64,000 bases of DNA from a virus (IMGVR_UViG_2891407665_000023:916-64915), one strand, 5' to 3'. Numbered from the stretch's first letter, positions 17,096 to 42,585 are shown. Notes: a model not told the origin generated them from the sequence alone. Numbers and translations are program-made.

Positions 17096-17153
17096 TTGTG
17101 ACATTTTTCCTACGGTTTTCCTTGCTATTTTTACCAGTTTGAGTGATTAATGT
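17096..17153 (+). promoter_or_regulatory. Cassette promoter module copy A
   Basis: TTGTGAC-N18-CTTGCTATT-N11-GAGTGATTAATGT; left operator arm degenerate. Confidence 0.65.
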
Positions 17154-17181
17154 AGTACCGCAAAAAAGGAGGGCAAACAGC

Positions 17182-18033
17182 ATGGAAAAAAGATACAACG
17201 TGACAGGGGAACGCAGGAAAGAGGTGGTTGAGGTGATTTCCGGGATTGTCGGGATGAAGGCGGTCTACATGAGGATGCCGACCTGCGCATATGCCATCAG
17301 CAACTTTACAGTCAGCAGGGAAGGAACGCTGGCCTGGGATGAACGCAGCAGTGGGGAACTGGTGGAAAAAGTCCTGGCAGGGCTGGCACAGGCAGGTTTC
17401 ACGGCAGAGCCGGAAGAGACCGCAGAGGCGCAGGCAGAGCCGGAGGATTCCACAGAAGAAGCGGCAGAGCCGCAGGAAAACGCAGAGGCGGAGGAAGCGG
17501 CTGCAGACGCGCCGGAACCGGAAGAATCCGCAGAGGAACCGGCCATGGATACGCCGGAGGTGGCAGGCGGGGAAACCGCCCGGGCAGAACTGCAGGAGGG
17601 CATCGGGCTTACGGTGTCGCTGCCGAGGGAGTCTTTCACGGACGCCGCCCTGGAGAACCTGCAGAAGCTGGTGGACGCCAAGGCCGCCCTGATCAAAAAA
17701 GCGCTGGCGGTGGAGAGCCTCCCGGTGGAGGCGGATGCGGAGGAGGTCTCCTTCCCCTGGTTTGCGGACGGGCAGGACGGGGATGCGGCGAAGGCATACA
17801 CGCACTTCATCACCGCCCTCTGCGACATGGCGCGGAAGCAGAAGCGCGTCACGGCGAAGGAACGGCCGGCGGACAACGAGAAATACGCCTTCCGGTGCTT
17901 CCTGCTCCGGCTCGGATTTATCGGGGAGGAATACAAAAACGAGAGGAAGGTCCTGCTGAAGAACCTCTCCGGCAACGGCAGCTTCAAGAGCGGGGCAAGG
18001 AAGGGGCCGGCAGACGATGGTATTTCCGAGTAA
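17182..18033 (+). CDS. Phage 'virulence-related' hypothetical protein with acidic linker
   Basis: AGGAGG RBS; C-terminal NEKYAFRCFLLRLGFIG...RKVLLKNLSG family signature; Glu/Ala-rich middle. Confidence 0.75.
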   Translation: MEKRYNVTGERRKEVVEVISGIVGMKAVYMRMPTCAYAISNFTVSREGTLAWDERSSGELVEKVLAGLAQAGFTAEPEETAEAQAEPEDSTEEAAEPQENAEAEEAAADAPEPEESAEEPAMDTPEVAGGETARAELQEGIGLTVSLPRESFTDAALENLQKLVDAKAALIKKALAVESLPVEADAEEVSFPWFADGQDGDAAKAYTHFITALCDMARKQKRVTAKERPADNEKYAFRCFLLRLGFIGEEYKNERKVLLKNLSGNGSFKSGARKGPADDGISE

Positions 18034-18235
18034 AGAGATCGTGGAGCGCGTCCGCAGGGAGTACCCTGCGGGGACGCGGGTGGCTCTGGTCAGGATGGAA
18101 GACTGCCAGGCCCCACCGATTGGGACGGAGGGCGTGGTGGAAGGGGTGGACGACACGGCTTCTTTGATGGTCCGCTGGAGCAACGGCTCCCACCTCCATG
18201 TGATCTACGGTGAGGACGAAGTCCGCAAGATATAG
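18017..18235 (+). CDS. DUF4314-like protein
   Basis: YPAGTRVALVRMED...PPIGTEGVV..VDD...VRWSNGS.L.VIYGED. Confidence 0.8.
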   Translation: MVFPSKEIVERVRREYPAGTRVALVRMEDCQAPPIGTEGVVEGVDDTASLMVRWSNGSHLHVIYGEDEVRKI

Positions 18236-18253
18236 TGGGAGAAACCCATAAAC

Positions 18254-18333
18254 TACACAAAATACGGCATCAAACCTTGTGTACTTTATACCCGTAATTG
18301 ACTTGCTATTATCCCCTTTTAGAGCGAATATGT
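18254..18333 (+). promoter_or_regulatory. Cassette promoter module copy B
   Basis: TACACAA-N16-TTGTGTA-N18-CTTGCTATT-N11-GAGCGAATATGT. Confidence 0.75.
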
Positions 18334-18379
18334 GTACTACCGAAAGGGAAAACAAAAAAACAAAACGGAGGTACACACC

Positions 18380-18748
18380 ATGACGAGGATCGAACTTTTT
18401 GAGAAGGCCATCGCAGAGAAAGCAGCAAGCCTTAAGGAATGGGGGATCAACCCGACACTGTTCTGGGCATACCGCAACAGCATCACGGCAGGCAACGACA
18501 GGATAGACTTCGGCGAGACCATCTGGGACAGCGAGGTCGGGGAGATCACGGAAACGCTGAAGGAGAACGGCATCACCGAGTTCACCATCAGCAGCACCTT
18601 TTCCAGCCTGATCCCGACGCTTGCGGAATTTGCAAAGTACGGCTTCCAGATGGCGGGGCTGACCGAAGTGAAGGCGAACTACACGGACTTCCAGACCCAG
18701 GAGCGGGCGGTTATTCCGGCGATCCGGATGGCGACGGAAGAAGCGTAA
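18380..18748 (+). CDS. Small phage hypothetical protein (DUF7698-like)
   Basis: GGAGG RBS; GINPTLFWAYRNS...FTISSTFS. Confidence 0.75.
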   Translation: MTRIELFEKAIAEKAASLKEWGINPTLFWAYRNSITAGNDRIDFGETIWDSEVGEITETLKENGITEFTISSTFSSLIPTLAEFAKYGFQMAGLTEVKANYTDFQTQERAVIPAIRMATEEA

Positions 18749-40229: not shown

Positions 40230-40282
40230 CAGTTTATCAGGCGGTGGAGGCAACTTCGCCGCCTGATTATATAGGAGACATT

Positions 40283-42271
40283 ATGAAAAGCATTGAAATT
40301 GATATTGAGACATATTCCTCCGTCAGCCTGCAAAAGTGTGGTGTATATAAATATGCGGAAAGTCCTGATTTTGAAATTCTTCTTTTCGGATACAGCGCAG
40401 ACGGTTCTCCTGTTGTTACGGTTGATCTTGCTTGCGGAGAGGATATTCCGTCGCTGATACTTGATGCACTGACCGATGACGAGATCATCAAATGGGCGCA
40501 CAATGCCCAGTTCGAGCGCGTCTGCCTGTCGAGGTATCTGTCGGATAGAGGAATCCGTCTTGACCCATTCCATGACCATCATCCATTGTCCACAGGATGC
40601 GTACGGTTCTTAAACCCAAAGTCGTGGAGATGTTCAATGGTGTGGACGGCATATATGGGGCTGCCGCTTTCACTGGAAGGGGCTGGCGCAGTACTGGGAC
40701 TTGAGAAGCAGAAGCTGACCGAAGGAAAAGATCTAATCCGATATTTTTCCATACCGTGCAATCCAACGAAATCCAACGGCGGCCGCACAAGGAACCTGCC
40801 GGAGCATGATCCGGAAAAGTGGCAGCAGTACAAAGCCTATAACATCCGTGATGTGGAAACGGAGATGCAGATACGGGAGAGGCTGGCAAAGTTCCCCGTT
40901 CCGGACGAAGTGTGGGATGAATACCATCTCGATCAGGAAATCAATGACCGGGGCATCCGAGTGGATATGCCGCTTATTAAACAGGCGACTACTATTGATG
41001 CCTTGTCCCGTGGCAGACTGACAGCTGCGATGAAGGAACTGACCAACCTTGAGAATCCGAACAGTGTTTCACAGATGAAAGGCTGGCTTGCAGGCAAAGG
41101 GCTTGCAACAGACACTCTCGGCAAAAAGGCTGTGGCAGCAATGATTGATGAGACGGACGGTGATATATCCGAGGCGTTGTCATTGCGGCAGCAGCTTGCC
41201 AAGTCATCAGTAAAGAAGTATCAGGCAATGGAAAATGCCGTCTGCGGGGATGACAGGTGCAGAGGGATGTTTCAGTTCTACGGTGCCAATAGGACAGGGC
41301 GGTTCGCCGGACGCCTGGTGCAGCTGCAGAACCTCCCGCAGAACCATATGGCTGATCTGGCCGAGGCGAGGGCGCTTGTGCGTGACGGCAATGCGGATGC
41401 CCTGGATGTGCTTTTCGATGATATTCCGGATATGCTTTCACAGCTGATCCGGACGGCGTTCATACCGAAAGATGGCTGCAAATTCTATGTAGCTGATTTC
41501 TCCGCAATCGAGGCAAGGGTGATTGCCTGGTTCGCCGGAGAGGACTGGCGGACGCAGGTGTTCAGGGATGGCGGCGATATCTACTGCGCTTCCGCAAGCC
41601 AGATGTTCAAAGTCCCGGTTGAGAAGCATGGCGTAAACAGTCACCTTCGGCAGAAGGGAAAGATCGCGGAACTTGCCCTTGGCTACGGCGGTTCCGTGGG
41701 TGCATTGAAAGCGATGGGTGCTCTGGAGATGGGGCTTAACGAAGAAGAACTGCAGCCGCTTGTAAATGCCTGGAGGCAGAGTAATCCTCATATTGTCCGG
41801 TTCTGGTGGGATGTAGATACCGCTGTAAAAAAAGCCATAAAGGAAAGACAGCCGCAGATGGTAAAGGGTGTGAAGTTTTTCTGTCAGAGCGGGATGCTCT
41901 TTATCCTTCTTCCTTCTGGACGTACCCTTGCTTATGTAAAACCTCGTATTGGAGAGAATCGTTTTGGAGGCGAATCCGTTACCTATGAAGGCGTAGGTGG
42001 AACAAAGAAATGGGAGCGGATTGAAAGTTATGGTCCCAAGTTCGTGGAAAACATCGTGCAGGCAACATCCAGGGATATCCTGATGTACGCCATGAAGACG
42101 CTCCGGTGCTGCAGCATCGTTGCCCATGTCCATGACGAGATCATTATCGAAGCCGAGCCACAGATGAGCCTGGATGTGCTGTGTGAGCAGATGGCGAAGG
42201 TTCCTCCCTGGGCAAAGGGACTGATTCTCCGAGCTGATGGATATGTTTGCGATTTTTATAAAAAGGACTGA
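40283..42271 (+). CDS. Phage DNA polymerase, family A
   Basis: IDIETYS exonuclease; ADFSAIEARV motif A; RQKGKIAELALGYG motif B; AHVHDE motif C. Confidence 0.95.
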   Translation: MKSIEIDIETYSSVSLQKCGVYKYAESPDFEILLFGYSADGSPVVTVDLACGEDIPSLILDALTDDEIIKWAHNAQFERVCLSRYLSDRGIRLDPFHDHHPLSTGCVRFLNPKSWRCSMVWTAYMGLPLSLEGAGAVLGLEKQKLTEGKDLIRYFSIPCNPTKSNGGRTRNLPEHDPEKWQQYKAYNIRDVETEMQIRERLAKFPVPDEVWDEYHLDQEINDRGIRVDMPLIKQATTIDALSRGRLTAAMKELTNLENPNSVSQMKGWLAGKGLATDTLGKKAVAAMIDETDGDISEALSLRQQLAKSSVKKYQAMENAVCGDDRCRGMFQFYGANRTGRFAGRLVQLQNLPQNHMADLAEARALVRDGNADALDVLFDDIPDMLSQLIRTAFIPKDGCKFYVADFSAIEARVIAWFAGEDWRTQVFRDGGDIYCASASQMFKVPVEKHGVNSHLRQKGKIAELALGYGGSVGALKAMGALEMGLNEEELQPLVNAWRQSNPHIVRFWWDVDTAVKKAIKERQPQMVKGVKFFCQSGMLFILLPSGRTLAYVKPRIGENRFGGESVTYEGVGGTKKWERIESYGPKFVENIVQATSRDILMYAMKTLRCCSIVAHVHDEIIIEAEPQMSLDVLCEQMAKVPPWAKGLILRADGYVCDFYKKD

Positions 42272-42283
42272 TAGTTTCCCTCA

Positions 42284-42326
42284 AACCGTCAGATTTCACC
42301 TCCCGCTGGGGCTACCCGGTAGGAGG
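42284..42326 (+). promoter_or_regulatory. Bipartite motif copy 3
   Basis: AACCGTCAGATT-N14-GGCTACC-CGG-TAGGAGG. Confidence 0.7.
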
Positions 42327-42335
42327 TGTTTTTCT

Positions 42336-42548
42336 ATGCAGGTAACACAGATAGCGGATGGCATCATGACGGTGGATGTTCCAAAGCCAACCGATCAGGA
42401 GATGCAGAATGAATATAACTATTTTCTTGCGGAACAAATGACGAAAAAGCTACTCGATAAGGGGCTGATTTCTGTAGATGAATTCAACAAGATCATGGTG
42501 AAAAACCGCCGCTCTTTCTCACCATTTATATCGAAAATTATCCCGTAA
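42336..42548 (+). CDS. SHOCT-like small protein (candidate directionality factor)
   Basis: NYFLAEQMTKKLLDKGLISVDEFNKI; directly upstream of the recombinases. Confidence 0.7.
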   Translation: MQVTQIADGIMTVDVPKPTDQEMQNEYNYFLAEQMTKKLLDKGLISVDEFNKIMVKNRRSFSPFISKIIP

Positions 42549-42552
42549 ATGA

Positions 42553-42585
42553 CTTGCTATTTAAGGCAGACAGAGTGATGTATAG
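42553..42585 (+). promoter_or_regulatory. Cassette promoter module copy G (promoter part only)
   Basis: CTTGCTATT-N11-GAGTGATGTAT; no TACACAA operator upstream. Confidence 0.6.

Follow-up and report, generated by a model that had tools for sequence, protein, structure and literature searches.

A recurrent promoter-type module ahead of accessory genes and the integrase operon in Heliusvirales-like temperate phages of Bacillota

Seven copies of a short bipartite repeat, CTTGCWAT-N12-GAGYGA, are present in a 64-kb stretch of DNA from an IMG/VR provirus record of 64,915 bases (IMGVR_UViG_2891407665_000023; the whole stretch is called the window here, and all coordinates refer to it). The window holds a Heliusvirales-like temperate siphophage, whose nearest GenBank relatives are the 'Ca. 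Heliusvirales' gut phages, and the repeats stand ahead of genes that range from single small open reading frames (ORFs) to a three-recombinase operon. The best explanation, which we consider fairly probable, is that each copy is a promoter together with a short 5' leader, and that the copies make up a portable, lineage-specific unit of Heliusvirales and Phi1207.3-like temperate siphophages. The module would thus be a phage regulatory cassette; its notable features are near-invariance across the phages of one phylum, a phased putative operator, and the breadth of the cargo behind it. No published description of the module was found, and a search with the motif string returned primers only.

A repeated module of fixed geometry

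The pattern CTTGCWAT-N12-GAGYGA matches the window exactly seven times, six times on the plus strand and once on the minus strand, compared with no match in 100 dinucleotide-preserving shuffles of the same DNA. When the window is searched with a profile hidden Markov model (HMM) trained on 98 foreign copies, the only matches at E<=10 are the same seven sites. The copies, designated A to G in order of position (Table 1), are exactly those listed in the original prediction, which had been made from the sequence of the window and had also placed an inverted repeat, TACACAA-N16-TTGTGTA, upstream of five of them. All five inverted repeats were verified, with 0-3 mismatches, and in 5/5 there are exactly 18 nt between the promoter-proximal arm and the C of CTTGC. 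It was likewise correct that copy A has kept only a right arm (TTGTGAC; its left arm is degenerate, TACGCCC) and that copy G has none.

The repeat as first described is real, but the conserved unit is longer than was stated. Past GAGYGA it continues with (W)TATAT, ATATGT or TTAAT, then with ACTACC, and last with an A-rich leader. Within the window, the bases after GAGYGA are ATATGT(G/C) in copies B-E, TTAAT in copies A and F, and TGTAT in copy G; the next block is (A/C)(C/T)TACC, which reads ACTACC in most copies and AGTACC in copy A. Copies B and C share an identical run of 43 bp within this one genome. All copies are intergenic, and every one is followed, 35-82 nt downstream, by a GGAGG-type ribosome-binding site (RBS) and a start codon. 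The distance between the two boxes of the core is the same outside the window: it is 12 nt in 318/318 unique copies (from 3.2 Mb of DNA), and no copy has a spacing of 8-11 or 13-16 nt.

Copy F is informative as to direction. The SymE-like gene behind it is the sole solid minus-strand gene in the prophage and lies among plus-strand operons, and copy F is its only possible promoter. Together with the fixed geometry and the place of the RBS, this supports the earlier proposal of a single promoter-type module, each copy of which is read in the direction of the gene behind it. The leader that follows is 45% A and unstructured (median fold z-score, -0.08); no Rfam family matched over the window at gathering scores, and none at E<=1 over 17000-22100. 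A complementarity between TGTGT in the -10 region and ACACA in the leader was considered as a pairing and rejected: it is also present in copies without one partner, and is therefore a trait of the leader family.

Distribution across phages and diversity of cargo

A motif search in related phages and prophages, which the original prediction had proposed, found the module to be widespread, in prophages of every major class of Bacillota. A stricter pattern (the core plus N7-8-ACTACC), scanned over IMG/VR, is present in at least 116 contigs; CTTGCTAT-N12-GAGTGATATAT is present in at least 120 GTDB species-representative genomes; and the non-identical copies from IMG/VR phages and Bacillota prophages total more than 330. 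The hosts include Lachnospiraceae, Oscillospiraceae, Clostridium, Pelotomaculum and Dehalobacter in the Clostridia; Veillonella, Selenomonas and Acidaminococcus in the Negativicutes; Robertmurraya, Tepidibacillus, Alkalibacterium and Gemella in the Bacilli; and also Tissierellia, Acholeplasma and Haloplasma. Related records contain 1-6 exact copies each, on a single strand except for the SymE-type copy.

Among the 181 unique IMG/VR copies, the cargo is a member of the gene A family (the first gene behind copy A) in 91, DUF7698 in 13, a large serine recombinase in 10, Nmad4 in 8 and a SymE-like gene in 5; about 20 other families, mostly orphan, are also represented. There are 26 cargo families in IMG/VR, and the GTDB genomes add 33 copies whose ORF fits none of them. 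In all, the families of small accessory genes behind the module number at least 50. No host housekeeping gene is among the cargo families identified for the IMG/VR and GTDB copies. Gene A is present in 26/26 of the fuller related genomes, where it is the only universal non-structural protein. In Streptococcus phage Javan630 and Erysipelothrix phage phi1605, the module lies both ahead of a gene A homologue and ahead of the integrase operon, and the latter copy directly follows PolA and a small ORF in the position that SHOCT has in the window; phi1605 has a third module site, ahead of a DUF7698 homologue. Because of this distribution, gene A and the integrase operon are regarded as the two ancestral homes of the module, and the remaining copies as recruits. 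The original description of a regulon of small cassette genes holds insofar as small cargo is present, but it leaves out these two commonest and ancestral cargoes.

The upstream palindrome

The inverted repeat seen in five window copies is found in 79/332 unique copies, versus 2/332 shuffles; with looser criteria, it is found in 70/181 IMG/VR copies, versus 7-9 in shuffles. Its spacer is 16 nt in most copies, and its logo is TAnnnTACACAA-N16-TTGTGTAnnnTA. The distance from the palindrome to the -35-like box falls into discrete classes of 18 nt (40 copies), 19 nt (15) and 29 nt (17), with almost none between. The step from 18-19 to 29 nt corresponds to one helical turn, as for an upstream operator, and if transcription starts at module position 37-39, the palindrome would be centred near -70 or -81. 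Arms that are able to pair are almost always of the TACACAA type, and changes in only one arm are more frequent than compensatory changes at the variable arm position (21 versus 5); the palindrome is therefore a sequence-specific DNA site rather than a generic stem-loop. The fixed sequence, fixed spacer and helical phasing favour the earlier suggestion of a protein-binding operator, which we treat as putative. The palindrome is unevenly distributed among cargoes (recombinase, 0/10; gene A, 24/91; other cassettes, 46/80), and it is also present ahead of copies with weaker -35 boxes.

These data bear on a different reading, in which palindrome and core act as RNA, either as a 3' stem-loop of the preceding cassette (a terminator, insulator or processing site) or as a structured leader. 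The palindromes in co-directional arrays do lie 9-62 nt past the upstream stop codon, the arms extend to 17 bp in copy E (GGCATAATTTACACAAA / TTTGTGTAAATTATGCC) and to 16-17 bp in some relatives, and the promoter-early stem-loops (PeSLs) of T4-type phages have the same layout of a stem-loop followed by a promoter. However, it is the distance from the stop codon that varies, while that to the -35 box is fixed; the usual stem would be short and AU-rich, with 7 pairs that close a loop of 16 nt, and is not followed by a U-tract; and copy F has no co-directional gene upstream. With the specificity of the arms and the unstructured, Rfam-negative leaders added, an RNA role is very improbable.

The identity of the binding protein was approached through co-occurrence. 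ORFs of at least 45 aa from the 26 fuller module-bearing genomes were clustered, and Fisher tests were made against the presence of the palindrome. The top matches were spurious overlapping frames and clade markers, with no helix-turn-helix (HTH) protein among them and none that went beyond clade effects. Three proteins encoded in the window had been put forward as regulators, namely the sigma-like protein (7155-7829), an HTH protein (3171-5054) and the XRE-type protein; their families are present in 3/26, 8/26 and 17/26 genomes, respectively, and none tracks the palindrome, so that this part of the original prediction is not upheld. Palindromes outside modules were also tried as a route to an autoregulated regulator and set aside: of 14 such matches, the 8 strong ones were examined and precede diverged modules (with TTGATA or TGGATA boxes) on one or the other strand; the other six are weaker, 2-mismatch matches.

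Which polymerase reads the core

In the mechanism that we favour, the -35-like TTGCTA would be bound by host RNA polymerase carrying its housekeeping sigma, along with a rigidly spaced, non-canonical -10 composed of GAG(T/C)GA and the A/T-rich bases after it, which in many family members would provide a TG-A-TATAT extended -10. Transcription would start in or adjoining ACTACC, and the resulting leader would be 20-40 nt long, rich in A and unstructured, with GGAGG as a strong RBS. In roughly a quarter to a third of copies, the 30-bp palindrome would add a further layer of control, through a protein that recognises this sequence as a dimer or tetramer; bound near -70 or -81 on one helix face, this protein might activate, in the manner of phi29 p4 and class I activators, or repress from upstream. 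The unit, ancestral ahead of gene A and the integrase operon, would have been copied or recombined before unrelated accessory genes in the terS-terL-portal and tail-lysis gaps. Since the same unit stands ahead of all these genes, they would be expressed jointly and independently of the late operon, and terminators at the ends of the arrays would block read-through into terL and the portal gene. The repeats themselves, with their geometry, distribution, varied cargo and mosaic breakpoints, are observations; promoter activity, the polymerase involved, the start site, and the direction and timing of regulation are deduced from them.

Evidence for this assignment comes from how the boxes vary. When copies are anchored on the downstream half only (321 copies), the upstream box is TTGCTA in 257, TTGATA in 27, TGGATA in 13, TTGACT in 5 and TTGCAA in 4; in the window it is TTGCTA in 7/7. 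The variants drift towards or around TTGACA, as a -35 element read by a housekeeping sigma varies. An extended -10 of the form TG-n-TATAT is present in 88/181 unique IMG/VR copies, and 42 more keep the TG with TTAAT or TGTAT after it. The TG itself (GAGTGA) is present in window copies A, F and G and in 140/181 family copies; copies B-E have CG instead. With a 17-bp spacer, the -10 hexamer would be GAATAT in B-E (in which A-11 and T-7 are present), GATTAA in A and F, and GATGTA in G, while use of the family-majority TATATA as the -10 requires a 19-bp spacer. Hosts such as Streptococcus, Acholeplasma and the Negativicutes are not known to share any sigma other than the housekeeping one. Other sigmas were compared and rejected: SigH (RnnGAATww), ComX (cin-box, TACGAATA), SigD, ECF sigmas and SPO1 gp34 each show only a partial likeness in one variant and have no matching -35, and none is known to be shared by all the hosts. 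Iterated HMM searches of the 26 genomes found no phage sigma or regulator family that is co-distributed with the module. Because the -35 box varies like that of a housekeeping sigma and no phage factor is co-distributed, host RNA polymerase is the likeliest reader, as the original prediction had proposed; we would wager on the host holoenzyme, though not heavily.

Several observations weigh against a promoter read by the host enzyme and controlled from the palindrome. A simple sigma-70 consensus scan passes 0/7 copies, and the same phage has a near-perfect housekeeping promoter, TTGATA-16-TG-TATAAT (14892-14919), which heads the cGAS/DncV-like cassette. The register of the -10 is ambiguous, since a 17-bp spacer gives GA(T/A)WWW, in which the T at -7 is unconserved. 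Non-consensus bases are near-invariant throughout the phylum, namely the C and T in the -35 box, the AGAG that precedes the -10, and the ACTACC of the start region, and conservation of these bases is beyond the known needs of a housekeeping sigma alone. The palindrome is enriched on GAGCGA, the variant without TG (p=3e-4), a link that is gone once gene family is controlled. (The quality of the core was for this reason rejected as evidence on whether the palindrome binds an activator or a repressor, as the enrichment vanishes within cargo classes.) The co-occurrence search in the 26 fuller genomes did not find the palindrome's binding protein. Finally, no transcription data for any phage of this group were found, and the papers on Heliusvirales and Phi1207.3 have nothing on promoters.

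Some of these points would be expected if the promoter were read only with a phage factor: a private sigma, a sigma-appropriation pair like MotA/AsiA of T4, or an activator acting on AGAG or ACTACC. Expression of the regulon would in that case be middle or delayed-early, not immediate-early. Such a factor could account for non-consensus positions that do not change from Streptococcus to Veillonella to Acholeplasma, for the rigid 12-nt spacing, for the failure of the copies in a scan which a promoter elsewhere in the phage satisfies in textbook form, and for a module that is confined to this phage lineage and never stands ahead of host genes; moreover, the phage encodes a late activator with sigma region 4 / DUF1492 (13198-13623) as well as the sigma-like gene. 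Yet no candidate is universal. The late activator is present in 14/26 genomes and the sigma-like protein in only 3/26, and both have other candidate sites, namely TGTCC repeats upstream of the HNH gene and AACCGTCAGATTT-N12-GGGGCTACC. The one universal non-structural protein, gene A, has no recognisable DNA-binding fold in its predicted structure, and the drift of the -35 variants towards the housekeeping consensus also speaks against a dedicated reader. We consider a required phage factor unlikely, if worth keeping in view.

As to timing, the original suggestion of immediate-early expression on genome entry is plausible; expression from the resident prophage, in the manner of a moron, would fit equally well. 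The anti-defence function that had been assigned to the cargo is a conjecture.

Two other promoter-like sequences in the window are unrelated to the module. The bipartite motif AACCGTCAGATTT-N12-GGGGCTACC is found at 7815-7850, just after the sigma-like gene and ahead of the replication genes, and at 42284-42320, ahead of SHOCT and ~230 nt upstream of copy G; from the second position, the recombinase operon may have two promoter classes. Between the late-activator gene and the HNH gene (13636-13702), there are three TGTCC / GTCC direct repeats spaced by ~10-11 nt and followed by a weak promoter-like ATGATA-18-TAAAAT, which together are a candidate late promoter with activator sites, unlike the cassette module.

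Exchange of cassettes

The homology of the window with three close relatives (G004, G007 and G029) breaks at the left edge of the palindrome and at the start codon. With G004 it stops at 18238/18246, which is the left-hand limit of palindrome B; the segment 18246-18383, which is module only, matches a copy that heads a different gene in G004, and homology is back at 19211, 30 nt before palindrome C. In both G007 and G029, other DNA takes the place of the Nmad4 gene from the leader to 19659/19649, and of the D/E block from 21349/21355 to 22017. The B cargo is missing in G004, and the Nmad4 and D/E cargo in G007 and G029, with different DNA between the same flanks. Breakpoints at module edges and variable cargo between constant flanks agree with the idea that the units are cassettes which can be swapped. 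The terL-portal gap of phi1605, which is the slot of cassettes D and E, is occupied by a gene for an aminoglycoside nucleotidyltransferase (L126, 8749-9243); no copy of the module was found ahead of it with the HMM, and the cassette hot-spot therefore also takes up resistance genes. As this gene illustrates, the module points to the gaps where new cargo enters these genomes.

Could the main selected role lie at the level of DNA, with the module acting in the capture and exchange of cassettes, either through homology, as an anchor, or as a site-specific target (compare PeSLs and the attC/attI sites of integrons) and the promoter being secondary? Homology between related phages begins and ends at the module's edges, copies B and C have their 43-bp identical run, one 45-nt unit precedes more than 50 cargo families that are unrelated to each other, the same gaps of phi1605 hold a resistance gene, and the phage encodes two large serine recombinases. 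The breakpoints, however, fall outside the palindrome and not at its centre, and the whole palindrome travels with the promoter. An anchor also leaves the -35/-10 geometry, the distance to the RBS and the helical phasing of the palindrome unexplained, and even very distant phages keep the module at the two ancestral positions, which are not cassettes. A primary DNA role is improbable, and it is in any case compatible with promoter function and not a true alternative to it.

A broader form of the promoter reading may be put forward tentatively, as rather doubtful in its entirety. The module would be a phylum-wide, universal cassette promoter, at once the expression signal and the recombination anchor of an integron-like accessory array in Heliusvirales and Phi1207.3-like phages; the cargo would be co-expressed early counter-defence or host-takeover genes, gated by the protein that binds TACACAA-N16-TTGTGTA, and the near-invariance of AGAG and ACTACC would stem from an additional reader.

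Comparison with known systems

In behaviour, the nearest known system is that of the PeSLs of T4-type phages, which are mobile regulatory cassettes (Arbiol et al. 2010, PMC2839356; Comeau et al. 2014, PMC4122927), for which circular recombination products and early timing were shown. In both systems, a short unit of inverted repeat and promoter is repeated in hyperplastic regions between core genes, beside small, variable ORFs that are mostly unknown, and the breakpoints of indels and replacements between related phages coincide with the unit. In contrast to PeSLs, the module described here belongs to temperate siphophages of Bacillota, differs in sequence, and also heads the universal gene A and the integrase operon. 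Furthermore, the PeSL stem-loop is a terminator, whereas here there is a specific AU-rich palindrome with a 16-nt spacer and no U-tract, tied to the -35 box and not to the upstream stop codon.

The nearest system in pattern is that of the start-associated sequences (SAS) and extended SAS (ESAS) of the Cluster K mycobacteriophages, in which the 13-bp SAS overlaps the RBS, so that a role in translation was proposed, and the inverted repeats of ESAS have spacers of 4-13 bp (Pope et al. 2011, PMC3203893). Each is an asymmetric motif present in many copies, in one orientation, upstream of a subset of genes, with an imperfect inverted repeat upstream of some copies, and both have a putative function. 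They differ in that 35-82 nt separate the module core from the start codon and the core has -35/-10 geometry, with only a generic GGAGG at the RBS; the palindrome spacer is fixed at 16; and the sequences and hosts are unrelated.

Two further comparisons are apt. The morons of lambdoid and other temperate phages are reportedly autonomous promoter-gene(-terminator) units, each of which has its own unrelated promoter. Like morons, the cassettes are inserted between conserved late genes, are present or absent among relatives, and are predicted to be transcribed apart from the late operon; unlike them, they have a single conserved promoter for all, which would make them a regulon, and their terminators close arrays, not single genes. 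The p4 sites at the A2b, A2c and A3 promoters of phi29, and class I (CRP-type) upstream activation, offer a likeness for the palindrome: an inverted repeat with arms about two turns apart, ~70-82 bp upstream of the start (here an inferred one), on one helix face and with a weak or atypical core. The arm sequences are unrelated to those of p4, and no p4 homologues were seen, although no search aimed at them was made.

Implications

Among the prophages that Firmicutes of the human and animal gut carry, Heliusvirales-like phages belong to the most widespread, and their lineage includes Streptococcus and Erysipelothrix elements with mef(A) and other resistance genes. One 45-nt signal that marks the accessory genes of such phages can serve as a search key, which would retrieve from metagenomes hundreds of co-regulated, mostly unknown small genes. 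If the reading as a universal cassette promoter is true, the 50 or more cargo families (the amidoligase-like gene A, DUF4314, DUF7698, Nmad4, SymE-like proteins and orphan ORFs) form a ready-made catalogue of early counter-defence or host-takeover genes that are expressed together. The module would also define a regulon in which integration is tied to accessory-gene expression. For the discovery of a new regulator, from phage or host, the phased palindrome offers a clean target. If host polymerase is all that the module needs, the module would also supply a compact broad-host promoter and leader for Bacillota.

Gene map and minor observations

The positions of the module copies, their cargo and the surrounding genes are collected in Table 1.

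Table 1. Module copies, their cargo and other genes in the 64-kb window
Feature	Position	Strand	Description
Copy A	17096-17146	+	right-arm remnant TTGTGAC 17096-17102; 18-nt gap; core CTTGCTAT-N12-GAGTGA 17121-17146
Copy A, -35-like box	17122-17127	+	TTGCTA
Copy B	18254-18327	+	perfect palindrome 18254-18283; core 18302-18327, GAGCGA variant
Copy C	19241-19314	+	palindrome 19241-19270, 1 mismatch; core 19289-19314 (CTTGCAAT)
Copy D	21374-21447	+	degenerate palindrome 21374-21403, 3 mismatches; core 21422-21447; begins 9 nt past terL stop
Copy E	21687-21760	+	perfect palindrome 21687-21716; core 21735-21760
Copy F	35602-35675	-	core 35627-35602; palindrome 35646-35675, 3 mismatches; between last tail gene and holin gene
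Copy G	42553-42578	+	core only, no palindrome
Cargo of copy A	17182-18235	+	gene A 17182-18033, 283 aa; DUF4314 gene 18017-18235, 72 aa
Cargo of copy B	18380-19179	+	DUF7698 gene 18380-18748; hairpin without T-run; ORF 18859-19179, 106 aa
Cargo of copy C	19369-19725	+	Nmad4 gene 19369-19644; terminator-like hairpin with T-run 19707-19725, closing the A-B-C array
Cargo of copy D	21501-21665	+	basic 54-aa ORF, no family match
Cargo of copy E	21809-22041	+	61-aa ORF 21809-21994; terminator-like hairpin with T-run 22022-22041, just before portal gene
Cargo of copy F	35149-35520	-	123-aa SymE/AbrB-fold protein, C-terminal coiled coil
Cargo of copy G	42616-46152	+	3.5-kb three-recombinase operon: large serine recombinase 42616-44157; small recombinase-like protein 44159-44581; second large serine recombinase 44581-46152
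Restriction-modification genes	261-3150		Pfam/PHROG matches
VapE-type protein	8873		Pfam/PHROG
SNF2 helicase	11616		Pfam/PHROG
Late activator, sigma region 4 / DUF1492	13198-13623		Pfam/PHROG
HNH endonuclease	13729		Pfam/PHROG
terS	14223		Pfam/PHROG
cGAS-like (cGAS/DncV-like) cassette	14992		Pfam/PHROG
ParB-methylase	15703		Pfam/PHROG
terL	19749-21365	+	just after hairpin 19707-19725
Portal, protease, capsid, tail	22047 onwards		Pfam/PHROG
Holin, lysin	35669 onwards		Pfam/PHROG
DUF2800, SSB, PolA, SHOCT	38361 onwards		Pfam/PHROG
XRE-type gene	46273		Pfam/PHROG

The original prediction had put one or two short genes behind each copy and, as a rule, a hairpin after them. This is partly so for the short genes, the exceptions being the 283-aa gene of copy A and the 3.5-kb operon of copy G; as regards hairpins, those with a T-run are found in the window at array ends only, before terL and before the portal gene. 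Because of this, the promoter-gene-hairpin arrangement is a property of arrays, not of single genes. Terminator-like hairpins lie 3' of 8/68 foreign cassette genes, versus 0 in shuffles. Both T-run hairpins of the window fall inside what is expected to be a single late operon, and late transcription must either pass them, through antitermination or leakiness, or restart beyond them.

Gene A matches the PHROG 2443 'amidoligase enzyme' region and has no Pfam match; in the ESM Atlas it is annotated only as 'virulence protein family'. Its AlphaFold model is confident (pLDDT 83) and has two alpha/beta domains joined by an acidic disordered linker of ~60 aa, and Foldseek found no match to it in the PDB at E<=0.001. 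Given such a model, gene A was rejected as a factor that reads the module.

Past the recombinases and the XRE-type gene, the segment 48166-64000 contains a GmrSD pair, ParA/ParB and a 1382-aa SpaA/thioester adhesin, and has no module copies; it is probably host DNA or another mobile element, not prophage. Just upstream of copy A, at 17012-17120, there is a remnant open frame that ends ...FAGIVYYAQFPDFLL*, and this segment is homologous to G004 DNA lying after an insert of ~2.1 kb between the methylase and gene A. Codons for 'AGIV..TQ' were considered as a methylase C-terminus, which they are not. Similar codons are also found upstream of gene A copies in other phages, and some apparent extra half-sites there may therefore be coding sequence.

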